A stretch of 63,989 bases of DNA, filler included, from Sandaracinaceae bacterium (GTDB taxonomy: Bacteria > Myxococcota_A > Polyangia > Polyangiales > JADJQN01): the NCBI GenBank assembly GCA_947483975.1. It is 5 parts of 5 records of this genome, joined end to end, with 100 filler letters (N's around TTAATTAATTAA, not from the genome) between each part and the next. Parts side by side here need not be neighbours in the genome. Positions count along the whole stretch, not along the records: positions 39,151 to 51,748 come from CANKOL010000127.1; 4 more parts are not named here. The stretch is one strand, 5' to 3'. The position numbers and the translations under genes were made by a program. Shown here piece after piece: positions 13,157 to 51,848 of this stretch; the first letter of the stretch is position 1; each line of letters begins with the position of its first letter. Below the pieces are notes generated by a model, which searched no databases, was not told the DNA's origin, and saw only the letters and a program-made list of their open reading frames with translations.

Positions 13157-13256
13157 NNNNNNNNNNNNNNNNNNNNNNNNNNNNNNNNNNNNNNNNNNNN
13201 TTAATTAATTAANNNNNNNNNNNNNNNNNNNNNNNNNNNNNNNNNNNNNNNNNNNN
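13157..13256. other. Artificial contig linker
   Basis: N44-TTAATTAATTAA-N44. Confidence 0.99.
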
Positions 13257-26178: not shown

Positions 26179-26278
26179 NNNNNNNNNNNNNNNNNNNNNN
26201 NNNNNNNNNNNNNNNNNNNNNNTTAATTAATTAANNNNNNNNNNNNNNNNNNNNNNNNNNNNNNNNNNNNNNNNNNNN
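26179..26278. other. Artificial contig linker
   Basis: N44-TTAATTAATTAA-N44. Confidence 0.99.
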
Positions 26279-39050: not shown

Positions 39051-39150
39051 NNNNNNNNNNNNNNNNNNNNNNNNNNNNNNNNNNNNNNNNNNNNTTAATT
39101 AATTAANNNNNNNNNNNNNNNNNNNNNNNNNNNNNNNNNNNNNNNNNNNN
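39051..39150. other. Artificial contig linker
   Basis: N44-TTAATTAATTAA-N44. Confidence 0.99.
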
Positions 39151-39852
39151 CACGGCCTCGTCGTGCGTCAGCTCCGTCTTCCATGCGCCGACGCGCGTCT
39201 CGAACGTCAGCGCGTGCCGCAAGAGGCGCAGAAAGCGCGTCCGCGGCCAGTCCTCGGCGCCGAAGCGCTTGAGGTGCTCGGTGCGCACCTGGCAGTCCAC
39301 GAAGTGAAAATTCCAGTGCACGAGGTGCCCGAGCAGCACCGCGAAGGCAACCTTGGACGCGTCGCTCTCCCGCGCGAACATCGACTCGCCGAAGAACGCC
39401 CGCCCGAGCGACACGCCGTACAAGCCTCCGACGAGCTTGCCGTCGCGCCACGCCTCGATGCTGTGCGCGAAGCCGCGCTCGTGCAGCGCGCAGTAGCCCT
39501 CGATCAGCGCCTTCGTGATCCACGTGCCGTCTTGCCCGGGGCGCGGGGACTCCGCGCACGCCTCGATCACGGCCCGGAACGCCGTGTCGAAGCGCACCTC
39601 GAAGTCGCCGCGCTTCACGCGCTTGCGGAGCGTGCGCCCGACGTGCGCGTCCTTCGGCACGAGCACGAAGCGCGGGTTCGGGGAGAACCACATCAGCGGC
39701 ATCCCCTCCGACGGCCACGGGAAGATGCCGAGCCCATATGCGAGCAGCAGTCGCTCGGGCTTCGCGTCTCCGCCGACCGCGACGACGCCCTCGCGCGAGG
39801 CGCCCTCTGGGGGCGGGAAAATCAGGTCGTCTGTGAGCAAATACACGGGCAT
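39151..39852 (-). CDS. aat: Leucyl/phenylalanyl-tRNA--protein transferase (last codons cut by contig end)
   Basis: AYGLGIFPW, WFSPNPR, GTWIT, AHSIEAW, LVGGLYG, FFGESMF, DASKVA, DCQ. Confidence 0.95.
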
Positions 39853-39965
39853 GGGTGCTGAGTGGCCTTCTTTGGGGGGCGTCGGCTTGCACGCGGCCCT
39901 TGACTCGTGCTCCCTTGGGGCCGCTCGCGCCCCCACTCAGGGCGGCGCCCCACCAGAGAGACTAC

Positions 39966-40601
39966 ATGAAGCACAGCATCGCCCTCCTCGCCATCCTCGC
40001 CTTCTCGCTCGCCGCCTGTGGCGACGACGACGTCACCCCGCCGGTCATCGTCGTGGACGCTGGCGGCGGCGTCGACATGAACGTCACGCCCGTCGACATG
40101 GGCCACCCCGACGTCGACATGGGCCCGGCCTGCGCGCCCGCCAACATCATGCCGCTCCCGGCCGCCGCGCTTCCGCGCTGCGCCGTCGCGACGCAGACCG
40201 CCGTCGCCGCCTGTGGCCTCCCCACGAGCGCCGCGGCCAGCATGTGCATCGGCGCCGCCCTCGCGGCGGACACCACCGCTGCGTTCGACGCGGGCGGCGG
40301 GCAGACCATCGACTGCGGCGGTTGCTACAACCTCCAGCAGGTCGCCTGCCTCTACTCGTCGGGCTGTGACACCCAACTCGACCACCTCCTCTGCTGCGCC
40401 GAGGCCAACGGCTGCGCGGACCCGAGCACCTGTGCCGCGTGCGACGCCGAGTACACGGCCGTCACCAGCTGCGCCCCCGCGCACCTCGACTGCTTCACCG
40501 CGACGACCGGCATGCTGAACGATTGCTTCGGCGCCACGACGCCGGTCGTCGACGGCGGCACCCCCGCGACCGACGGCGGCGCGGCTCCTGACGCAGCCTG
40601 A
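39966..40601 (+). CDS. Cys-rich lipoprotein
   Basis: MKHSIALL...LAAC lipobox, DAG/DMG linker, many Cys. Confidence 0.8.
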   Translation: MKHSIALLAILAFSLAACGDDDVTPPVIVVDAGGGVDMNVTPVDMGHPDVDMGPACAPANIMPLPAAALPRCAVATQTAVAACGLPTSAAASMCIGAALAADTTAAFDAGGGQTIDCGGCYNLQQVACLYSSGCDTQLDHLLCCAEANGCADPSTCAACDAEYTAVTSCAPAHLDCFTATTGMLNDCFGATTPVVDGGTPATDGGAAPDAA

Positions 40602-40628
40602 TCCGACGGGCTCACCGCCCATCTGACG

Positions 40629-40675
40629 AACGAGGCCGGCCACGCAGCGATGCGTCGCCGGCCTCTCTCGTTTCT
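40629..40675 (+). terminator. Probable intrinsic terminator
   Basis: GAGGCCGGC.ACGCA-GCGA-TGCGT.GCCGGCCTC hairpin followed by a T-rich tail. Confidence 0.55.
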
Positions 40676-41034
40676 GTCGCTTCCGCCGGACAGCGGACAC
40701 CTGCGGAGGTGGTGTTCGGGCGCTCGGCAAGTTGCCGCTCACTCGCGCGCAGGCCTGAGTCGCCCGTCGCCATCGATGCACCGCCCCTCGTCGAGGGGCC
40801 AAGTCCCCTCGGGGGATGGGCACACGGGCGAGGGGGAGGTGCCTCTCGAGCCAGGGTGTGTTCCGCGCTAGCGGAGGATCGCAACGACTGGCGAGGGGAA
40901 TTCGATCTGCAGCGTGGGGGATTCAGGTTCGCATAGAGGGGAATTCGAGCTTGCGGACGGGATATCGATCTTCGCGGAGGTGCGTGGTCCCCCTTGACCA
41001 GCATGGTCTCTCGGTGGCTGAATCGTGGCGCATT

Positions 41035-41072
41035 CGGCCCAAGGTTCGGGCGTTCTGTCCAAGGTTGGGCAC
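41035..41072. repeat. Two degenerate REP-like copies
   Basis: CCCAAGGTTCGGGC and TCCAAGGTTGGGC, 20-bp period; same core as the repeats flanking the Y1 transposase. Confidence 0.65.
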
Positions 41073-41084
41073 TCGGGAGGCACG

Positions 41085-41849
41085 ATGGCGAGGCTCACGA
41101 CGCGTCAGAAGGCGCTGCGGGTGGTGGAGTTCCTGCTCGGGGTGCGGCACGAGGGCGTCGCGAGCGCACTCGCGCGGCACGGCTTCACGCCGGAGGAGCT
41201 GGCGGAGGGCTGGAGGCTCGTCGCCGCGCTGACGAGCGACGCGTTCGCGGAGCGGGAGCCGGTCGAGGTGCGCCCCGCCGAGCTCGCCGCGCTCCTCGCG
41301 TGGGAGCGCGCGTGGTTCCCGATCGCTGCGGCGGCGCTGCGCGCGCGGCACCCGACGCTCCACGAGGCGCTCTTCAACCGCCTCGCGCCGACGGAAGGCA
41401 ACGCCGTCGTCCTCGCGGTCGGCACGTTCCTCGACCGCCTCGCGGACCTCGAGGCCACCGACGCTGGCCGTCAGGCGCGCCAGCTGCTCGCTGCGCGCGG
41501 GCTCGACGCGCCCACCGTCGCCGAGGCGATGCGGCTGCTGGCGAGCGTCCGCGAATTCCGCGTGCCGGCCCCCCTGAGCCTCCGCACGAGCGAAGCGGCC
41601 GACCGCGACGCGGCGCGCGAGGCGGCGCTCTGGAGCTGGTATCTCGAGTGGAGCGCGATTGCGCGCGTGGCCATCGACGATCGGCACCAGCTGCGCGCGC
41701 TCGGCTTCCGACCGGGCGGCGCTGCGAGCGCGACCGAGGAGCCGTCGCCGGAGCCGCAGCCCGGGTTGCCAGAGCCGCAGCCGAACCTTGGTCCGCAGCC
41801 CGGGTTGCCGGAGCCGGAGCCGAACCCTGGTCCGCAGCCCGGGTCGTAG
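41085..41849 (+). CDS. Hypothetical alpha-helical protein with Pro-rich repeat tail
   Basis: GGGAGG SD; GFTPEELAEGWRL and WYLEWSAIARVAI...LRALG motifs; 39-bp tandem repeat tail. Confidence 0.75.
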   Translation: MARLTTRQKALRVVEFLLGVRHEGVASALARHGFTPEELAEGWRLVAALTSDAFAEREPVEVRPAELAALLAWERAWFPIAAAALRARHPTLHEALFNRLAPTEGNAVVLAVGTFLDRLADLEATDAGRQARQLLAARGLDAPTVAEAMRLLASVREFRVPAPLSLRTSEAADRDAAREAALWSWYLEWSAIARVAIDDRHQLRALGFRPGGAASATEEPSPEPQPGLPEPQPNLGPQPGLPEPEPNPGPQPGS

Positions 41850-41875
41850 CCTGCTCGGCGAGGAAGACGGAATGA

Positions 41876-42062
41876 CGGAACCCGACCCACGTTGAGTTTC
41901 GGAGCCTGGCGAACGGTGAGCGTCGAGCTGCGTCAGGTAGAGCAAGACGGGTGCGGTGGCGGAACCCGACCCACGTTGCGGAACCCGACCCACGTTGAGT
42001 TTCGGAGCCTGGCGAACGGTGAGCGTCGAGCTGCGTCAGGTAGAGCAAGACGGGTGCGGTGG
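41876..42062. repeat. 84-bp exact duplication with three copies of CGGAACCCGACCCACGTTG
   Basis: 41876-41959 identical to 41979-42062; 19-mer at 41876, 41960 and 41979. Confidence 0.92.
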
Positions 42063-42159
42063 GGGGCGGAGGTCCCGGAAATAGAGCGCGCCGCCCGAGT
42101 AGAGCCGCGGGGCAGTTCCCTTTTCCAGGAGCCGCGCCCGACGGTGTACGCTGACCATC

Positions 42160-43569
42160 ATGCGATCGCACAGGCCGGAGTTCCTCCTCGCGCTCCTCGC
42201 ACTTACCGTCACCGCCGCCTCCGTGGGCTGCGCCGAGGAAGACGGCCGCAAGCCCTCCGACGCCCACCTCGACGCCGGCACCTCCGATGCGTCCCAGGTT
42301 GACGCCGGCCCTTCCGACGCGGGCCTAGACGACGCGGCGCTCCCCGACGCAGGCCATCCGCCGGCCGACGCGGGCCCCGGCGCCGGCATGCTCTGCGGTT
42401 CAGTTTCTTATGATCGTCGGCCAATCGGGGCGACGGGGCTCGGCGCCGTCACCGCGGAGCCTCTCGCGGGCGCGACGGTGCTGCTCTTGCGTGGGGGCGC
42501 AGAGGCCGACCGCAGCCTGAGCGATGAGCGAGGGGGCTTCTGCTTCGGCGCGCTCGATGAGAGCGAGAGCGTCGAGGTCCGTGTCCTGGCGAGCGACGAG
42601 TTGGAGCTCCCGGCGGAGGTAACGGACTTCTACGCCGCCCTCTACTCGGTTCGCGCAGGTCCCTTCGTCGTCGGCGCGGGGCCGGTCACGATCCGCATTA
42701 CGCAGGGCGAGAACGCGGGCGCCTTCGCGATCTTCGAGACCATGCGCGGGGGCCTGCTCTTTGCGCGCACCGCGTTTGCGCGCGCAGATCTTTTCCCGAC
42801 GCAGAGCAACCGCTGGGAGAAGGGCAACTCTACGCCGGGTGGCACCTCATACTTCGCCGGCGATGCGATCTGGCTCCTCGGCGGGCCGATGGACACCGAC
42901 GAATACGACACGGCGGTCATCCTCCACGAGCTTGGTCACTACATCGAGGCAGTCTACGGCGCGACCGATACGGGTTCCGGTTCGCCCCACGCGGGCGCGG
43001 ACACGGATCCACGGCTGGCCTGGAGCGAAGGTTGGGCCACCCACTTCTCGAACCTCGCGAGCGGGAGCGGTGAATACCTGGACTCTTACGGGGACGGCAT
43101 CGCCTTGAACTACGACGTCGCGACCCTGCCGCTCTCGGGCGAATACGCCGGAAACGCGAGTGGCGGACTCAGCCAGAACCTCAGCGAGTGGCTGATCGCC
43201 GCCTCCCTCTACCGGCTCTACGAAGCGGACACCCCCGCTACGCAGTCCGCCCGGATGATGGCCGTCATCCGCGATTGGTTCGATCCACTCGTAACCGATC
43301 GCGGCGCGGGCGGCGGGGACTTCGTAGACTACCTCGACGGCTACCTGTGTCTAAATGCTGACCTGCACCACGAATTGATCATGAGCCACATCGTGGGCGA
43401 GCGGACCTTCCCCTACGACTTCGCCGGGAGCTGCCCTGCGCCCAAGCCCGGCCGACCCTACGACGCCCTCTCGGCCGACCTCAACGATCGGCGCGAGCCG
43501 CCCGGCCAAGTCTTGACCGACGCGCGAGGCCGGACGCTCCGCGAAGCGCACATCGACCGAGTTCGCTGA
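42160..43569 (+). CDS. Lipoprotein zinc metallopeptidase (gluzincin-like)
   Basis: Lipobox SVGC; DTDEYDTAVILHELGHY and LAWSEGWA motifs. Confidence 0.82.
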   Translation: MRSHRPEFLLALLALTVTAASVGCAEEDGRKPSDAHLDAGTSDASQVDAGPSDAGLDDAALPDAGHPPADAGPGAGMLCGSVSYDRRPIGATGLGAVTAEPLAGATVLLLRGGAEADRSLSDERGGFCFGALDESESVEVRVLASDELELPAEVTDFYAALYSVRAGPFVVGAGPVTIRITQGENAGAFAIFETMRGGLLFARTAFARADLFPTQSNRWEKGNSTPGGTSYFAGDAIWLLGGPMDTDEYDTAVILHELGHYIEAVYGATDTGSGSPHAGADTDPRLAWSEGWATHFSNLASGSGEYLDSYGDGIALNYDVATLPLSGEYAGNASGGLSQNLSEWLIAASLYRLYEADTPATQSARMMAVIRDWFDPLVTDRGAGGGDFVDYLDGYLCLNADLHHELIMSHIVGERTFPYDFAGSCPAPKPGRPYDALSADLNDRREPPGQVLTDARGRTLREAHIDRVR

Positions 43570-43761
43570 TCCCGAACGCGGCGGTCTCCCTGAAAGGCAA
43601 GTGTCGGTGTTTCCCGCGGTGCCACCGCCGCGAGCCGCGCGCCATGGCCGGTCCCAGGCGTCCTCTTCGTCCGTCCGATGTTCGCTCGGCGCTCAGTTCT
43701 CGATGCGCTGCGGGGGCACCGTCGGACGGTGAGGGGCTACCGCCCATCGAGTGCGCGTCGA

Positions 43762-43800
43762 CCCGACCAAGGTTGGGCTACCCGACCAAGGTTGGGCTGG
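43762..43800 (-). repeat. REP palindromes (2 tandem copies)
   Basis: Minus strand reads GTAG-CCCAACC-TT-GGTCGGG, i.e. GTAG tetranucleotide plus imperfect hairpin. Confidence 0.85.
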
Positions 43801-44039
43801 ATGTGGGCACCTGGTGCCGCGTCGGGGAGGCGTCCTCGAGGCGGCCTTCGGACCCGACGCTCCGCTCTCCCGGTCTAATCGAAGCCGCCCACTGGCTTCC
43901 GGTGCTGTCGGCGCCTCCGGGCAACCCGCGGCAATCCAGTCTTGCGCGCCGCTCGGCTACACCGCGGCCTCGACGGCCACGGTCCGCGTGGCGCCCCGCT
44001 ACGCGCCCGCTGTGCCCGTCGTTTGCGTGTACGGCGTCT

Positions 44040-44942
44040 CTACGCGGCGACGGCCGCGCCGTGATGCCGCACCATCCACCAAGTGCCGGCGGGGAACACT
44101 GCGTCACGGAGCCCGGCACGCCATCGAGCGAGCGCCGCGTCGTACGCCGCGCGAAAAGCGCGCAACGCGCGGACCGCAGCCTGATACGCACCCGGGACAC
44201 CGCCTACCGCGAACGTGGGATTGCGCGACGCGAGTGGCTCGAAGCTCGTCGCTCGGTCGTGCGGCGATACGTTCTCGGCGCGCTCGGCCCCGAGGAACTT
44301 CCAGCCCTTGTCGGCGACCTCTTGGCGAGCGCGCGTCTCGTGCTCGGCTGCCGAGGCGCGCGCGGCGTCGCGCCACGCGTCGGCGTCTTCGGCCCCGACG
44401 CCCGGCGGCAACGACAGTTCGAGTTCGGCGTAGTCGGGCCAAGCACCGTTTTCGGCGTCGAAGTAGTAGGCGGGGCGCGCCGCGCGCATACGACCACCCG
44501 CGAGGTCGGCGATGCGGCTCTTGGGGCCTGGCCAGTCGCGCGCATACCGCACGAGCGCCGAGGCGACTGGGTTTGCCAGCGCATAGCCGATCTTGTCGAG
44601 GATCGCCGCGCGTGTCGTCAGCTGAACCACGGACGTCTGCGCGTCGTCCCATGCCGTTCCTTCCCACTCGCGGAGCACTTTGAGCCCGAGCGCCACCGAG
44701 CGATGAAAGTGCGCGAGGAACGCGGGTAGCTCGCCGCACGGGTCAGTCGCTACAAGGTGGTAGTGTGTCGACATGGCGCAGAACGCGTGTATCTGCAGGC
44801 CGTAGCGAGCGGCCGAGACCGCCAGCGCGTAGACGAATAGCTGCCGTACGTCGCGGTCGGGCCGGAGCAAGAAGTGCCTGCGCAGAGTGCGGCGCGTGAT
44901 GAAGACACTGGAGCCGGGGAGGACGGGGCGAGCGCGGGACAT
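44040..44942 (-). mobile_element. REP-associated tyrosine transposase (RAYT, HUH Y1 family)
   Basis: FITRRT start motif, AMSTHYHLV (HUH), YALANPV catalytic Tyr; REP-like repeats on both sides. Confidence 0.88.
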
Positions 44943-45055
44943 CCGCGGACGTGGAGCAGGCGGCGTGCCGGAGGTCGCTTGTGTGATTTCAAGGGGTTAT
45001 GCGGACGAATCGGCGGACTCGCCGACGGCCGCCGCCAGGCCGCCGCCGGAACGTG

Positions 45056-45162
45056 CGACCAAGGTTGGGCTGGCCGGGCTGCCGGAACGTGCGACCAAGG
45101 TTGGGCTGGCCGACCCAGGTTGGGCTGCTAGCTCGAGGGCTGGCCGACCCAGGTTGGGCTGC
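45056..45162. repeat. REP-like cluster (4 copies)
   Basis: CGACC[AC]AGGTTGGGCTG at 45056, 45092, 45111 and 45145. Confidence 0.88.
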
Positions 45163-45236
45163 TAGCTCGAGTGGAGCGCTTCCGATAGAGCTTTCGTGGA
45201 AGGCGCCGCGCCCCGGGGCGCCGCCTAGGTCGCCGC

Positions 45237-47546
45237 CTAGGTCGCCGCCGAGGTGCTGACGAGCGCGAGCGACTTCTCGTCGGCCGCGACGCCGAACTCC
45301 GCCGTGCCGCCGTCGCGCAGGTCCCCGAACAGCAGCGCCTCCGCGAGCGCCTTCTTCAGCTGTTGCTCGACGAGGCGCGCCATCGGGCGCGCGCCCATCG
45401 CCGGGTCGTAGCCGTTCACGGCGAGCCAGGTGCGCGCCGACGGCGTGAGCGCGACGGTCACCTTCTTCTCGTCGAGCTGCCGCTGCAGCGCCGCGACCTC
45501 CTTGTCGACGACGAGCAGGATGATCTCGGGCGTCAGCCCGCGGAACAGGATCTGCGCGTCGAGCCGGTTGCGGAACTCGGGCGTGAAGAGCTTCTCGATC
45601 GCGCTCTTGGCCTTGCCCTCGTCGACGCCCGCGCTCGCGCCGAAGCCGATCGACTTCGTCGCGAGGTCCCGGGCGCCCGCGTTCGTCGTCATGATCAGCA
45701 CGATGTTGCGGAAGTCGGCCTTGCGACCGTTGTTGTCCGTCAGCGTCGCGTGATCCATCACCTGCAGGAGGATGTTGAAGATCTCGGGGTGCGCCTTCTC
45801 GACCTCGTCGAGCACGACGACCGCGTGCGGGTGCTTGCGCACGGCGTCCGTCAGCAGCCCGCCCTGGTCGAAGCCGACGTAGCCGGGCGGCGCGCCGATC
45901 AGGCGCGAAACCGTGTGCCGCTCGCCGTACTCGCTCATGTCGTAGCGCAGGAACTCGACGCCCATCACTGCGGCGAGCTGCTTCGCGAGCTCCGTCTTGC
46001 CGACGCCCGTCGGCCCGGCGAAGAGGAAGTTGCCGATCGGCTTGTCCGCCGCGCGCAGCCCCGCGCGCGAGAGCTTGATGCTCGCGGTGATCTGCGCGAT
46101 GGCCTCGTCCTGGCCGAAGATCACCTTGTGGAGCTCTTCGTCGAGGTGCTTCAGCTTGTCGCGGTCTGACGAGCTGACGGTCTTCTCGGGGATGCGCGCC
46201 ATCTTCGCGACGACGTGCTCGATGTCCGCGACGCTGATCGTCTTGCCGCCGCGCAGGCGCACCATCGCGCCCGTCTCGTCGATGACGTCGATCGCCTTGT
46301 CGGGGAGCAGTCGCTCACGGAGGTGGAGCGCCGAGAGCTTGGTCGCCGCCTCGAACGTGCCCGGCTCGTACGTCGCGCCGTGGTGCGTCTCGTAGCGGCT
46401 GCGCAGCCCCTCGAGGATCAGCACGGTCTCGTCCTCCGAGGGCTCGTTGACCTCGATCTTCTGGAAGCGCCGGGCGAGGGCGCGGTCGCGATCGAAGCTG
46501 CTCTTGTACTCCTCGAACGTCGTCGAGCCGATGCAGCGCAGCTTGCCGCTCGCGAGCGCGGGCTTGAGGATGTTGGACGCGTCCATCGAGCCGCCCTGCA
46601 CGGAGCCTGCGCCGACGATCGTGTGGATCTCGTCGATGAAGAGGATCGCGTTCGGCAGCTCTTGCAGCTTCTTGATGACGCCCTTGAGCCGCTGCTCGAA
46701 CTGCCCGCGGAACTTCGTCCCCGCGAGCAGCGCGCCCATGTCGAGCGAGTAGACGCGCGCGTCCTTGATCGCGTCGGGCACCTTGCCCTCGAGGATGTGG
46801 AGCGCGAGCCCCTCGACGATGGCGGTCTTGCCGACGCCCGGATCCCCCACGAAAATGGGGTTGTTCTTGCGGCGCCGCACGAGGATCTGCACGGTGCGCG
46901 CGAGCTCGTCGGTGCGGCCGATCAGCGGGTCGATGTGCCCCGCGACCGCCTCGGCGTGCAGGTCGACCGTGTACGCCTTGAGCGGGTCCTTGGCGCTGTC
47001 GCCATCGCTCTCTTCGCCGTCTTCGCCGTCGTCGTCGTGGAGCTCGGGGATTCCGTCGATGCCCGAGTCGTGATCGTCGTGATCGTCGTCGTCGTCGTCG
47101 GAGCTCGGCTCGATGCCGTGCGAGAGGAACTGCTTGAGGTCGAACGCGGTGACCCCCTCGGCCTTCAGCAGGAAGACCGCGTGGGACTCCTCCTCCTTGT
47201 ACATCTGCACGAGCACGTTGCCGCCATCGATGATCTTCTGATCCGAGGACATCACGTGAATCGCCGCGCGCTGCAGCACGCGCTCGACCGAGATGGTCGT
47301 CTGCGGGCTGACGTCGACCTCCTCGGGCACGGCCGACATGCTCTCCGAGAGGAACTGCTCGAGCTCCTTGCGGAGGCGCGGGATGTTTGCTCCGCACGCG
47401 CGCAGCGCCTTCCCGGCGCGCGGGTCTTTCGTCAGCGCGAGCAGCAGATGCTCGAGCGTGACGTACTCGTGGCGGCGTTCAGTCGCCTCGTCGAAGGCGG
47501 TGCGCAGCGCTGCTTGAAGCTCTTTGGCGAGAATCGGGCTCGGCAT
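45237..47546 (-). CDS. clpA: ATP-dependent Clp protease ATP-binding subunit ClpA
   Basis: [45 protein letters not shown]; no ClpB middle domain; adjacent to clpS. Confidence 0.95.
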
Positions 47547-47550
47547 GGGA

Positions 47551-47871
47551 TCACTCTTCCGGCTCGATCGAGAGATGAAACGGGAACTCGAATTCACGCG
47601 CCAACTGCTGGACCGTCTTCAGCTTGGTCTCCGCGACCTCGAACGGGTAGACCCCGGCGACGCCGACCCCGTTCAAATGCACGTGCATCATGATCTGCAC
47701 GGCTTCCGTCTCCGACTTGTGGAAGATGGTGCGCAGCACATCCACGACGAACTCGCGCGTCGTGTAGTGATCGTTGTGCATCAACACTTTGTAGAGCGGC
47801 GGGCGCTTGGTCTTCGTGCCCGTCTTCTTCTCGGTGACGATGCCCGAATCGTTATCCCATCTAGTCGACAT
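47551..47871 (-). CDS. clpS: Clp protease adaptor ClpS
   Basis: YKVLMHNDHYTTREFVV...IMMHVH..GVGVAGVY.FEVAETK. Confidence 0.96.
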   Translation of the reverse strand: MSTRWDNDSGIVTEKKTGTKTKRPPLYKVLMHNDHYTTREFVVDVLRTIFHKSETEAVQIMMHVHLNGVGVAGVYPFEVAETKLKTVQQLAREFEFPFHLSIEPEE

Positions 47872-47943
47872 CGTGCTCGCCGCGTCCTCTGCTGTCGCGC
47901 CGCTGTCCGAGGGGACGGCGAGCGCCTACTCGAACTGACCATT

Positions 47944-48456
47944 CTAAGGCGTCGGCAGCGCTTGGGAAGCCGCGGGCGTCACTCTCCGCGCGACGAGGTC
48001 GCAGAGCGCGTAGACGCTCATGCCCTCGTAGCGCGGCTCGAGCACGAGCGGAGTCTCGGTGTCGAGGCGATGCACGAGCACGACGAGGCGGTCCTCGTCG
48101 ACGACCGCGGCGCGGATCGCGCTCCACGGGACCGTCTCCGTGCGGCCCGCCTCGCGCAGCTCGAGGGACGCCGCGCCGAGGGACAGCGAGTAGGTCGTCG
48201 GCAAGGAGGTGCGGCGGCGCGCGGCGACGAACGCGGCCGTCCAGCCCACCGAGGCGAGCGCGGCGACGCCGACGATGACCCAGCCGAAGAGCGTCGGACC
48301 GAGGGCGCCGATGGTCAGCGCGCCGAGCCCGCAGACGACGGCGCCGGTCAGGCGCAGGTAGGCCACGGCGTGCTCGTTGTGCACGTCGAGGCGCAGCACG
48401 AGGTCGGGCGCGTCGGGGGGCGCGCTCGGCGTCGAGGCCAGGCTCGCGGCGCTCAC
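47944..48456 (-). CDS. Hypothetical membrane protein
   Basis: Two TM segments plus PH-like soluble region; GTGA overlap with upstream gene. Confidence 0.6.
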   Translation of the reverse strand: MSAASLASTPSAPPDAPDLVLRLDVHNEHAVAYLRLTGAVVCGLGALTIGALGPTLFGWVIVGVAALASVGWTAAFVAARRRTSLPTTYSLSLGAASLELREAGRTETVPWSAIRAAVVDEDRLVVLVHRLDTETPLVLEPRYEGMSVYALCDLVARRVTPAASQALPTP

Positions 48457-48863
48457 TGCAGCACCAAGCGCACGAAGAAGTCCTCGTCGGTCGCGTTCTG
48501 GATCGTCACCGTGCCGTCGTCGCCGACGGCCTCGATGCGGGTGACGTTGCCCGAGGCGAGCGTGCTGCCGACGCCGCTCCGGTCGAACGCGATGTACGTG
48601 AGCAAACTGAGCGGCTTGCTCGGGAGCGGATGGTGGACCTTGAGGTGCGCGCGCGCTGGGAACGAGATCCAGCCGTCGCCCGCGGCGAGCGGGGGGAAGT
48701 CGGAACTCTGCCACTGCGCGCCGGCGAGGCGCTGCGACGCGGGCCACTGCGCGGCGGTGATCTCGACGAAGCTCTCGGCGACCGCCTTGCCACAGCCGGA
48801 CGCCGCGAGCGCGAGCGCCGCGGCGAGGGCGAGCACCGTGCGCCTCGACGAGGCCGGGCTCAT
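48453..48863 (-). CDS. Hypothetical lipoprotein
   Basis: [28 protein letters not shown] overlap with hemB. Confidence 0.7.
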
Positions 48864-49843
48864 CCGAGCACCTTCGCGGCGTCGAGCGCGTGATAGGTGA
48901 GGATGAGGTCGGCGCCCGCGCGCTTGATCGACAGCAGCACCTCCATCATCGCGCGTGTCTCGTCGATCAGGCCCGCGGCGGCGGCGGCCTTCACCATCGC
49001 GTACTCGCCGCTGACGTTGTAGGCCGCGACGGGCACATCGACCGCGTCGCGCACCTCTCGGATGATGTCGAGGTAGGGCAGCGCGGGCTTCACCATGATC
49101 ATGTCGGCGCCCTCGTCGAGGTCGAGGCGCACCTCTCGGAGCGCCTCTCGGCGATTGCCCGGATCCATCTGGTAGCCGCGGCGATCGCCGTGCTTCGGCG
49201 TGCTCTCGGCGGCGTCGCGGAAGGGGCCGTAGAACGCGCTCGCGAACTTCGCCGCGTACGAGAGGATCGCGATGTCGCTGAAGCCCTCGTCGTCGAGCGC
49301 GTCGCGGATCGCGCCGATGCGGCCGTCCATCATATCGCTCGGCGCGACGATGTCGGCTCCCGCACGCGCGTGCGAGAGCGCCTCCTTCGCGAGCAGATCG
49401 AGGGTCGCGTCGTTGTTCACGTCGGTACGCCCGCGGTGCGTCTCGAGCGGGCCGCAGTGCCCGTGATCGGTGTACTCGCACATGCAGACGTCGGTGATGA
49501 CGATGAGGTCGGGGAGCGCGCTCTTGATGGACGCGACGGCGCGCTGCACGGGGCCGTCGGGATCCCAGCCGCTCGAACCGACGGCGTCCTTCGTCTCGGG
49601 GATGCCGAAGAGCAGCACGCTCGGGACGCCGAGCGCCCAAGCCTCGCGCGCCTGCTCGACGATGATGTCGACGCTCGACTGAAAGACGCCGGGCATCGTC
49701 GCGATGGGGCGCTTCTCGCCCTTGCCGGCGCGCGCGAAGAGCGGGAGCACGAAGTCGCGCGGGGAGAGCTGAGTCTCACGCACCATCGAGCGGAGGGTCT
49801 CGGTGCGGCGTAGGCGGCGCGGGCGTTCTTCGGGGAAGGGCAT
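48860..49843 (-). CDS. hemB: Porphobilinogen synthase
   Basis: [55 protein letters not shown]. Confidence 0.97.
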
Positions 49844-49855
49844 CGGGGCTCCGGG

Positions 49856-51415
49856 TCAGGCGGGGGAGGGCGGGGTGAGGGCGGCGAGGTTCGCGAAGTG
49901 CGCGACGAGCGCGTCGAGGAGGCCGGGCGTGGTGTACTCCGTCGCGGTGACGGCGACATCCAGGCCGAGCTTCTGTGCGGTGGCCGTGGTGATGGGGCCG
50001 ATGGAGGCGAACGTCACCCCCAGGAGCAAGCGAGGCGCGTCTGCACCGAGGAGCGCGACGAGCTGCTCGGCGGTGGACGAGGAGGTCAGCGCGATGACGT
50101 CGAGGCTGCGCGCCTCGAGCGCCGCGCGGATGGCCGCGGCGTCTTCGTCCGACGCGCCGACGGTCACATAGGCGGGCACGATGTCGACGTGCGCGCCCGC
50201 CGCGACGAGGCGCTCGGGCAGGACCTCGCGGGCGACGGCGGCGCGCGGCAGCAGCACGCGGGCGCCGCGGACGCGCTCCCCGAGGGCGGTGAGCACGCTG
50301 TCGGCGGCCGCTTCGCCGCGGTACTCCGTGGGCACGATGTCGGCGCGCACGCCGTAGCCCTCGAGCGTCTCCGCGGTCGCGGGGCCGATCGCGCAGACGA
50401 GCGCGCGCCCGAGTCGTCGCGCGTCGCCGCCGTCTCGGCGGAGCGCCTCGAAGAAGCGCGTGACGCCGTTCGCGCTCGTGAAGACGACCGCGTCGTAGCG
50501 CGCAGCCTCCCTCGCCGCGCGCGCGAGCGGGTCCTCGTCGGCGGGCGGCACGAGGCGAATCGTCGGCAACAGCACCGGCTCAGCGCCCGCGTCGCGGAGC
50601 CCTCGCGCGAAGCCTGCCTCTTGTCCGCGCGGGCGCGTGACGAGCACGCGCTTGCCGAAGAGCGGCTGCGCGTCGAACCAGCGCAGCGCCTCGCGGAGGC
50701 GCACGACCTCGCCGACGACCGTCAGCGCAGGCGCGCCGAGCTGCGCTCCGTGCACGAGCGAGGCGAGCGTGCCCACCGTGCCGACGACCGTCCGCTGCTG
50801 CGGCGACGACGCGGACTGCACCGTCAGCGCGGGCTCGTGCGGGCTGCGACCGTGCGCGACGAGGCGCGCGAGCGTGCGCTCGAGCGAGCTGACGCTGCCG
50901 AAGAGCACGAGCGTCTTGGTCGCGGTCGCCAGCTTTTCCCAGTCGTGCGCGTTCTCGTCGTTCTCCGCGCTGTCGGCCATGGCGAAGAACGCCACGCTGT
51001 TCGAGAGGTCGCGATGCGCCAGCGTGAGGCCCGCGTACGCACACACGGCGAGCGGCGCGCTCACGCCGGGCACGATCTCGAACGCGACGCCCGCCGCGGC
51101 GAGCAGCGCGACTTGCTGAGCGCCTTGCGCGAAGAGCAGCGGATCGCCGCAGACGAGCCGCGCGACGCTGCGTCCCGCGCGCGCCTCGAGGATCAGCCGC
51201 TCGGTGACGGCGCGCTGTGGCTCGCTCGACGACTCGACGTCGACCGAGACGAGCACCGCGCCCGGCTTCGCGTGCGCCAAGAGCGACGGATGGACGAGCG
51301 CGTCGTAGAGCACCACCTCGCACTCACCGAGGCGCCGGAGCGCGCGAGCGGTGATGAGCTCCGGGTCGCCGGGGCCCGCACCGAGCAGAACCACCTTGCC
51401 GGCTGCGTGCTTCAT
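49856..51415 (-). CDS. hemD: Fused uroporphyrinogen-III C-methyltransferase / uroporphyrinogen-III synthase (CobA-HemD)
   Basis: LLGAGPGDPELIT, YDALV, VPGVS; then PLFGKRVLVTRP, VFTSANGV, AIGPATA, ASIGPIT. Confidence 0.9.
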   Translation of the reverse strand: MKHAAGKVVLLGAGPGDPELITARALRRLGECEVVLYDALVHPSLLAHAKPGAVLVSVDVESSSEPQRAVTERLILEARAGRSVARLVCGDPLLFAQGAQQVALLAAAGVAFEIVPGVSAPLAVCAYAGLTLAHRDLSNSVAFFAMADSAENDENAHDWEKLATATKTLVLFGSVSSLERTLARLVAHGRSPHEPALTVQSASSPQQRTVVGTVGTLASLVHGAQLGAPALTVVGEVVRLREALRWFDAQPLFGKRVLVTRPRGQEAGFARGLRDAGAEPVLLPTIRLVPPADEDPLARAAREAARYDAVVFTSANGVTRFFEALRRDGGDARRLGRALVCAIGPATAETLEGYGVRADIVPTEYRGEAAADSVLTALGERVRGARVLLPRAAVAREVLPERLVAAGAHVDIVPAYVTVGASDEDAAAIRAALEARSLDVIALTSSSTAEQLVALLGADAPRLLLGVTFASIGPITTATAQKLGLDVAVTATEYTTPGLLDALVAHFANLAALTPPSPA

Positions 51416-51434
51416 CGGCGCGATGATAGCCGCG

Positions 51435-51748
51435 TCACTCCGCCGGCGCCGCTGCGCCGCTGTCGGGGGCTGCCTGCCCCGCGAGGCGGGCGTTGCCGCG
51501 CTCCTCGTCGAAGCGCTCGGGTAGGTGCAGCACGAGGCCCGGCGTCTCCTCGCCGGCGCGGATGCGCGAGGGGTAGCGCGCTTGGACCTCGCCGGCGGCC
51601 GGGTGCCGCGCGCTCGGCCAAGCGTCGCCCGTGGGCACCCCGCGCAGCGTGAAACGCCCCTGCGGATCGGTGCGCGTCGCCTTCGTCCAATCGGGCGCGT
51701 CGCCCCCCGCGCCGACGGCGACCTCCGCCCCGGAGACGGGGGCACCGA
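51435..51748 (-). CDS. C-terminal fragment with carboxypeptidase regulatory-like domain (5' truncated)
   Basis: Frame reads GAPVSGAEV...TRTDPQGRFTLRGVPTG...ARHP to stop at 51435. Confidence 0.6.
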
Positions 51749-51848
51749 NNNNNNNNNNNNNNNNNNNNNNNNNNNNNNNNNNNNNNNNNNNNTTAATTAA
51801 TTAANNNNNNNNNNNNNNNNNNNNNNNNNNNNNNNNNNNNNNNNNNNN
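51749..51848. other. Artificial contig linker
   Basis: N44-TTAATTAATTAA-N44. Confidence 0.99.

Follow-up and report, generated by a model that had tools for sequence, protein, structure and literature searches.

We propose that the interval between clpA and aat on contig C127 of a Sandaracinaceae bacterium metagenome-assembled genome (MAG; GCA_947483975.1, here G000) is probably occupied by a REPtron-like unit with an atypical, non-GTAG repeat, which lies within a lineage-specific and variable intergenic island and would not be an array of gene cassettes. The window, that is the whole stretch of DNA analysed (63,989 bases), is made of five contigs of this MAG (C122, C124, C125, C127 and C135) joined by Ns, and the locus studied is the 12.6-kb contig C127 at window positions 39151-51748. 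G000 amounts to 5.29 Mb in 524 contigs, with 81% completeness and 71% G+C. The enzyme of the unit, hereafter Y1, is a predicted HUH protein of the kind of the REP-associated tyrosine transposases (RAYTs; REP, repetitive extragenic palindromic sequence). It shares the interval with a Cys-rich lipoprotein gene, a gene for a hypothetical protein of 254 residues (hyp254) and a putative peptidase gene (pep469); these four open reading frames (ORFs) had all been listed in an earlier note made from the window, and all four were located. The enzyme and the repeats around it are arranged as follows:

41036..41070, plus strand: two degenerate motif copies (GCCCAAGGTTCGGGC, GTCCAAGGTTGGGC) upstream of hyp254; repeat family D2
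41754..41844, minus strand: 39-nt tandem repeat of 2.3 copies (Tandem Repeats Finder) with two inverted motif copies; repeat families I22-I24
41876..42062, plus strand: three GACCCACGTTG copies within a 103-nt unit duplicated at 100% identity, before pep469
43761..43798, plus strand: 19-nt unit ACCCGACCAAGGTTGGGCT in two exact copies, 242-279 bp downstream of the Y1 stop codon
44040..44942, minus strand: Y1 HUH enzyme, RAYT-like by its match to NF047646, its motifs and its predicted fold, 300 aa
45053..45171, plus strand: four units, two of GACCAAGGTTGGG and two of GACCCAGGTTGGG, lying 115-204 bp upstream of the Y1 start, with the clpA stop codon about 70 bp away

About 13 variants of one motif had been counted in this interval by the earlier note, and all 13 were found in their places. 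Its core, GACC[AC]A[GC]GTTG, matches nine times in the window, always within 41884-45156, where 0.05 matches would be expected, and none of 100 shuffles reached nine. The other four copies are degenerate, two on the plus strand at 41036-41070 and two inverted at 41778-41832. The inverted pair, described as standing at the end of the hypothetical gene, is indeed present, but it is located inside the 3' end of the hyp254 ORF, in the 39-nt repeat, which codes for the protein's Pro-rich C-terminal tail; the paralogue of hyp254 on contig C47 lacks this tail. Between clpA and aat, arrays of two to four units thus stand on both sides of genes, with mixed strands and variants. The CAC variant GACCCACGTTG occurs in G000 only before pep469, and it is the variant that flanks the RAYT of a same-genus relative, G001.

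Across the whole genome, the same pattern gives 75 matches, 66 of them on 31 other contigs. The statement that no copy occurs elsewhere in the window is true but uninformative: it cannot show that the motif is local, because the window consists of five unrelated contigs. The genome consensus, GACCAAGGTTGAG, has 49 exact copies on 23 contigs versus none for its reversed control, and 216 versus 28 when up to two mismatches are allowed. The core of the repeat has conserved flanks and a variable centre, (C)CGAC-CNNN-GTTG(A/G)G, and its free-centre form GACCNNNGTTG matches 226 times in the genome against 36 for the reversed control, the enriched central triplets being AAG (64), GAG (36), GAC (30), GTG (12) and GAT (9). 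Out of 168 copies with an enriched triplet, 120 lie outside crude gene calls (~4100 genes covering 86% of G000 bases), and the extragenic copies are found between tandem (64), divergent (22) and convergent (17) genes. There are 29 arrays of at least two copies, each of them on a single strand and usually with a spacer of its own. The exact 13-mer is species-specific, its 49 copies in G000 comparing with none in 37 of 40 relatives and one or two in the other three. The motif is a dispersed extragenic repeat family, and the counts for the free-centre core and for its extragenic copies dispose of the idea that it is specific to this locus. This is the case of a simply dispersed REP that the earlier note had itself named as telling against its gene-capture reading.

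Arrays and Y1 genes are found together in G000 and beyond it. The genome holds six full-length Y1 paralogues, 64-80% identical to the window copy, and all six have an array of at least two copies upstream (-115 to -350); downstream there is an array in four and a single copy in two. Ten of the 29 arrays are at most 260 bp away from a Y1 gene. The flanks are inverted at three of the six loci and on the same strand at the other three, and no DNA similarity between the loci was found beyond the motif and a leader of ~65 nt. The single Y1 of G001, 62% identical, is preceded by six CCGACCCACGTTG and followed by inverted degenerate copies, and six of the seven exact CCGACCCACGTTG copies in that genome flank it. 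In other genera, Y1 loci adjoin related CCGACC-containing repeats, namely CGAGATCCGACCGTGGTC six to seven times (G025), GAAGATCTGACCGACGTTGA three times (G026) and GGCGAGCCGACCCAGGTTCG twice (G022), the enzyme family being found in 24 of the 41 genomes of the order that were searched. The pairing of a RAYT-like enzyme with a cognate motif, put forward in the earlier note, is corroborated by the arrays that bracket all six paralogues and the single Y1 of G001, and these comparisons support the motif as the putative cognate repeat of the enzyme. Three further observations concern the Y1 loci. A GC-rich 22-mer at 45030-45051, about 90 nt upstream of the Y1 start, is repeated exactly upstream of the Y1 paralogue on C139 (9228-9249) and at the start of C56 (108-129), a contig that opens with motif copies; it may be flanking DNA of a seventh Y1 copy missing from the assembly. 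The 65-nt leader is 85% identical at C7 (34644-34708). The G001 Y1 locus has orthologous flanks on C6, C249 and C140 of G000, the matches on C249 and C140 lying near contig ends.

The identification of the ORF as an HUH Y1 transposase stands on catalytic motifs, a family match and the nearest solved structure. Residues 5-138 match the NCBIfam family NF047646 (REP_Tyr_transpos) with an E value of 1.3e-9 and 38.1 bits. The protein has the motifs H60-Y-H62 and Y120-A-L-A-N124-P125, of which H60-x-H62 and Y120-x3-N124-P125 do not vary across 14 aligned members of the family; in the same alignment, a catalytic N-terminal domain (about residues 5-143) is followed by a C-terminal domain of ~160 aa with many invariant residues. 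The best solved relative for the profile of this alignment is the E. coli TnpA_REP structure 4ER8 (E 0.0057), whose HMH and YIYINP align with the HuH and Y motifs of Y1. An AlphaFold model of Y1 (pLDDT 76.5) likewise retrieves 4er8_A at rank 1 in Foldseek (E 1.2e-5, TM 0.68 on the target), with the transposases of ISDra2 and IS608 coming next. Homologues in databases carry the name 'transposase' in Sorangium and Minicystis, or else 'REP element-mobilizing transposase RayT'. Judging from motifs and model, the 300-aa ORF is an intact, long and divergent member of the RAYT kind.

It can be hypothesised that Y1 would be a single-stranded DNA nuclease and ligase of the RAYT (TnpA_REP) kind placed between two arrays of its cognate repeat. 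The enzyme would bind the repeat on one strand, probably when the latter is single-stranded at replication, and nicking and rejoining at the repeat would seed and lengthen arrays, preferentially near its own gene. The repeat family would in this way have spread through intergenic DNA, forming head-to-tail arrays whose spacers are specific to each array. The number of copies per array varies among natural populations, one metagenome run (X5) having an extra 21-nt repeat unit behind 41875. As for hyp254 and pep469, no evidence connects their acquisition with the enzyme; they would be lineage-specific accessory genes that landed in the same variable spot, where clpA and the lipoprotein gene converge with their 3' ends. 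The copies nearest the transposase had been likened to a GTAG-hairpin form, a description that does not hold: they have neither a GTAG head nor a consistent hairpin, and among all copies of the region the only GTAG or CTAC head is a CTAC at 43778-43781. A possible structure is a 4-bp CGAC/GTTG mini-stem with a G.T pair and a variable tetraloop, such a structure would account for the variability of the centre and confer strand specificity, and the form GTCG seen in G025 is compatible with it.

Several points weigh against our proposal. The repeat departs from canonical REPs by having no GT[AG]G head. A stem around the core is only weakly favoured, with a mean of -4.19 kcal/mol for native flanks versus -3.60 kcal/mol for swapped ones (187 of 5000 permutations reach the native mean), and covariation of the flanks in register is absent beyond the first pair (x2-y2 to x6-y6). 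The 38.1 bits of Y1 are below the curated cut-off of 80 for NF047646, and the protein gives no Pfam Y1_Tnp match and no Pfam family at all even at E values up to 10. Six Y1 copies in this genome, and up to 34 matches in one relative, many of which are partial, truncated or with stops, are more like an insertion sequence (IS) than the usual one or two RAYTs. In the metagenome runs considered below, the listed contigs stop in the arrays (~41905-42033 and 45075-45141), which leaves the MAG assembly as the sole support for the joins. Lastly, three of five arrays without Y1 adjoin at least one gene with no close orthologue in G001 or in G002, a genome of the same family, and two of five are in conserved synteny; no enrichment is claimed from the three, as a base rate taken from random intergenic regions is lacking for these rather distant genomes.

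The copy numbers bring up a second reading, which we consider unlikely, in which the array-Y1-array unit is an active or recently active IS (IS200/IS605-like or TIRtron) that moves in one piece, leaving the dispersed arrays as footprints or solo ends. The six copies stand at unrelated loci, relatives have up to 34 matches of which many are truncated or interrupted by stops, the flanks are inverted at three of the six loci and in G001, and the family is often found on very short contigs; all this would suit an IS. The unit on C119 would suit it as well. The order there is A, B, array, Y1, motif, C, D, E, array, F, where letters stand for genes; Y1 is missing from G001, which keeps the same order and spacing, A...C...F. 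Therefore Y1 with its arrays is a clean insertion of ~1.3 kb without cargo, and the intergenic region that holds the distant array is conserved. IS200/IS605 elements also share with our locus the Y1 HUH fold and short recognition elements on both sides of the gene. However, near-identical copies are lacking (64-80% protein identity, with no DNA likeness beyond motif and leader), a search with Y1 of 72,556 plasmids and 50,697 phage records gave no match, and there is no tnpB-like neighbour, the neighbours being pep469 and clpA. The Y motif is of the Y-x3-NP type, that of the RAYT class, and not the Y-x3-Q that the main text of PMC6006769 gives for IS200. In addition, three of the six loci have flanks in the same orientation, and the flanking arrays are also dispersed without the gene, unlike in IS200/IS605. 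We therefore retain the REPtron-like unit as the preferred description, and turn to the genes that surround it:

39151..39936, minus strand: aat (Leu/Phe-tRNA protein transferase; PF03588, E 1.1e-71), truncated by the contig start
39966..40601, plus strand: Cys-rich lipoprotein ORF with lipobox LAAC, divergent from aat
40626..40671, no strand: terminator-like GC-rich inverted repeat directly 3' of the lipoprotein gene, the left edge of lineage-specific DNA
41085..41849, plus strand: hyp254 (254 aa), of a Myxococcota hypothetical-protein family, lineage-specific at the site
42160..43569, plus strand: pep469, with a lipobox and a HELGH (HExxH) motif, a putative secreted metallopeptidase, lineage-specific
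45219..45254, no strand: 12-nt tandem repeat, CGCCGCCTAGGT three times, spanning the clpA stop codon
45237..47597, minus strand: clpA (PF07724, PF00004, PF02861, PF10431)
47551..47871, minus strand: clpS (PF02617, E 1.1e-29)

The claim that clpS, clpA and aat are co-oriented is correct, all three being on the minus strand and identified by Pfam. The true start of aat is likely near 39852, as alignments of relatives begin at about residue 26-29. Codon use of the peptidase had been called atypical, and this is what we find: G+C at third codon positions (GC3) is 0.83 in pep469 and 0.82 in the Y1 ORF, versus 0.92-0.95 in aat, the lipoprotein gene, hyp254 and clpA.

The history of the site was followed in 84 other genomes of the order with clpA and aat, of which 56 have both on one contig. 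The gap between the two genes is at most 300 bp in 44 of these pairs, 1.1-1.8 kb in five and 5-11 kb in three, and four are rearranged. Seven enlarged gaps were searched for homologues of Y1, the lipoprotein, hyp254 or pep469 and none was found in any of them. Within the family, the gap of G002 contains an ORF of 532 aa resembling oxidoreductases. In G001, the gap holds only a lipoprotein homologue (57% identical), divergent from aat and convergent with clpA, and between the 3' ends of clpA and the lipoprotein gene there is a terminator-like hairpin and no motif. Since this homologue occupies the same position, the lipoprotein gene is ancestral to the site and outside the insert. The G000-specific DNA is then ~4.6 kb long, from the terminator of the lipoprotein gene (40626-40671) to the clpA stop codon, and comprises hyp254, pep469, Y1 and the arrays. 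The G001 clpA itself (L018, G001:C4 2142-4503) shows 47-51% identity over most of its length, with two in-frame TGA codons and two frames, and could be degraded or mis-assembled; beside it, clpS (80%) and aat (68-70%) look normal.

Neither of the two other inserted genes has a close orthologue in 40 relatives, where the best identities, all in other families, are 34-49% for hyp254 and 29-38% for pep469. The former has the paralogue on C47, 46% identical, and belongs to an Atlas cluster of 4751 members; it has no Pfam family, and its match to NF052641 is weak (22 bits, for a cut-off of 80). For lipoprotein, hyp254 and pep469 alike, no Pfam family exceeded its cut-off, and Pfam, NCBIfam and Atlas gave no function; the weak leads among them are sub-threshold matches to M90, M60 and CarboxypepD_reg, and Mycolysin_M, present in 14% of one cluster. 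A P-loop ORF (GMTGSGKTG) comes directly after the hyp254 paralogue of C47 (9836-10700), and the gene adjoining the hyp254 homologue of G001 (C6:383699-384255) resembles DNA of contig C38 of G000. We suggest that hyp254 may normally belong to a multi-gene system, of which an orphan copy is found here.

The stretch, or part of it, is contained in 20 runs from nine studies, all of them lake or freshwater metagenomes, two without an organism label. We compared Logan contigs of four runs (X3, X5, X10 and X11) from four studies, a possible source run being excluded. In X3 and X5, contigs bridge aat and the lipoprotein gene up to 41140, then 41112-41905, and then 42033-45074/45078 with pep469, the array and Y1, with 0-8 differences. 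The X11 strain is ~4.5-6.5% divergent and has aat, lipoprotein gene and hyp254, as well as pep469, in the same places; cover in X10 is patchy. The contigs of X3, X5 and X11 thus contain the same genes, and none of those listed spans two arrays. The ancestral neighbours found at both ends of the insert, together with even depth (12-15 in X3, 18-26 in X5), argue for a true in-place insert. Fifteen contig joints are listed, with 21-37 letters on the shorter side and none at an array; such short-sided joints often come from other organisms or repeats, and contigs cannot show rare excised or circular forms. Over ~43753-45137, X11 has no cover at 90% likeness and resumes at 45137; a 3311-nt contig of this run follows pep469 to 43753, the start of the array, and continues with ~1415 unlike letters. 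The Y1 segment of X11 may be much more diverged or may have been replaced. A metagenome scan with aat returned 58 loci, all at most 61% identical, one of them with clpA directly upstream, and no close strains.

These data bear on the model of the earlier note, according to which Y1 uses the repeats as recombination sites and stacks single-gene cassettes in an integron-like manner. Its attraction is that arrays stand at every gene boundary of the 4.6-kb insert, that hyp254 and pep469 are without close orthologues, that GC3 is lower in pep469 and Y1, that the array before pep469 is of a variant unique in G000 and typical of the Y1 flanks of the sister species, and that three of the five other arrays adjoin genes with no close orthologue in G001 or G002, though with no base rate for comparison. 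The model is nevertheless highly improbable. The repeat is genome-wide and extragenic as in any REP family, the lipoprotein 'cassette' is ancestral to the site, and the enlarged clpA-aat gaps of seven other genomes are without Y1. Gene content is constant in the contigs compared from three other studies, including those of the ~5% divergent strain. The genes do not share the orientation of the enzyme, and the arrays are not uniform in variant, number or strand. Two insertions in conserved synteny carry no cargo: one is the second Y1 locus, on C119, and the other is a nine-unit array on C333, whose two neighbours have adjacent orthologues in G001 (80-81% identical), with 252 bp between them there and 517 bp in G000. 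The likeness to integrons is superficial, consisting of gene-boundary repeats beside an enzyme that would break and join DNA; the locus has no IntI tyrosine recombinase, attI site or Pc promoter, and the only DNA-processing enzyme in 39151-51748 is Y1, the Pfam scan giving none among the other ORFs.

A looser form of the same idea, in which the arrays would be single-strand entry points that join foreign or duplicated genes, so that lineage-specific genes gather nearby (clpA-aat, C38, C171, C151), is given an equally small chance. It draws on the three in five arrays, away from Y1 genes, that adjoin genes without close orthologue in G001 or G002, a figure that lacks a base-rate control, and on the array before pep469, whose repeat variant is foreign to G000; because of the three arrays, we leave room for a loose link between arrays and lineage-specific DNA. 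For the C38 array, flank orthology was assessed by protein searches against G001 and G002, and neither flanking gene has an orthologue there; when synteny of the C38 region with G001 was sought in the DNA, only multi-copy gene fragments matched. The C171 array has one flank with only a 34% match, and two G001 matches ~22 kb apart. One flank of the C151 array is a lineage-specific paralogue. Two 465-aa paralogues, 77% identical and without clear G001 orthologue, are encoded at C151 9801-11195 and C48 18329-19696; the C151 copy adjoins an array and the C48 copy is within ~2 kb of one, and the variants differ (AAG versus GAC).

That the arrays are binding sites of host proteins, or terminators or attenuators, with their closeness to Y1 being secondary, is scarcely credible: they do occur in tandem, divergent and convergent intergenic regions alike, their core is a short imperfect palindrome as in many protein sites and there is no stable hairpin, but this reading must contend with ten of 29 arrays within 260 bp of six genes among ~4100, with an association that recurs in other genera with changed motifs and with the six of seven exact copies that flank the only Y1 of G001.

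The REPtron-like unit that we favour shares with described REPtrons (4ER8; main text of PMC6006769) the HUH and Y-x3-NP motifs and the predicted Y1 fold, a gene bracketed by a species-specific short repeat that is also dispersed intergenically, and paralogues within the genome that are diverged rather than identical. It departs from them in several respects. Y1 is 300 aa long, with a conserved C-terminal domain of ~160 aa, versus 165 aa for the 4ER8 chain; it scores below the NCBIfam cut-off and has no Pfam match; T/S rather than D/N precedes its HuH, and WD/WE is the form of its W motif. The repeat lacks a GT[AG]G head and a clear hairpin, and it forms tandem arrays on one strand, with units of 19-45 nt and a spacer particular to each array, instead of inverted REPIN pairs. 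There are six copies per genome.

Class 2 TnpAY1 proteins were defined by Y-x3-NP, with REPtron arrangements in five subclasses (Quentin et al, 2018; PMC6006769, main text). According to the same text, neither automatic nor manual searches gave REP-like sequences for the long subclasses 2.1 and 2.3. These subclasses resemble Y1 in their length (medians of 238 and 325 aa) and their conserved C-terminal domains, and subclass 2.3 also in being multi-copy with diverged copies; they differ in that no REP-like sequences are reported for them there, whereas a cognate dispersed repeat is present here. The motif signatures of Y1 differ from those described for both, with THYH and Y[AV]LANP as against NH[VYF]H and YIELNP or YVDLNP. 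The TIRYT/TIRtron elements, as presented in the main text of PMC3733652, are comparable in having a Y1 gene longer than that of typical RAYTs, with flanking non-REP repeats that may also make up dispersed families of dimers or clusters. Their terminal inverted repeat (TIR) consensus, GGGGWSAS (Di Nocera et al, 2013), is absent here, and the flanks consist of arrays of the GACCNNNGTTG core and not of single TIRs, with inversion at three of six loci. The main text of these two papers and of Bertels et al, 2017 (PMC5581495) contains no mention of Sorangium or of Myxococc-, which supplements may list, and literature searches on RAYT in Sorangium and on REP-associated tyrosine in Myxococc- found no relevant description.

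Gene capture by an integron-like route would have been new if true, and the evidence does not carry it; likewise, the entry-point reading, if true, would amount to a RAYT-driven route of gene acquisition. What the locus offers is a 300-aa RAYT-like family that is widespread in the order (24 of 41 genomes; Sorangium, Minicystis) and missed by Pfam. It is a long Y1 form with associated repeats, where the survey of PMC6006769, in its main text, reports none for the long, C-terminally extended subclasses. Six diverged enzyme and repeat pairs, together with the differences in array length, should be useful for understanding how Y1 enzymes choose and amplify their targets. A practical point for MAGs of this group is that the arrays break short-read assemblies.

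Some minor features of the window can be added. Each of its joins, at 13157-13256, 26179-26278, 39051-39150 and 51749-51848, consists of 12 bases with 44 N on either side, and the gene neighbourhood across them is not real. Rfam and tRNA scans of C127 gave no match each. In the 410-bp non-coding stretch before hyp254, three copies of a GAGGGGAATTCGATCT-like unit of 16 nt lie at 40893-40971, and several substitutions and small insertions are seen around 40863-40897 in runs X5 and X11. At the clpA stop codon, the tandem repeat is shorter by 12 nt, at 45219, in one contig of run X5 and one of run X10; the absence of this one unit means that the length of the ClpA C-terminus differs between populations.

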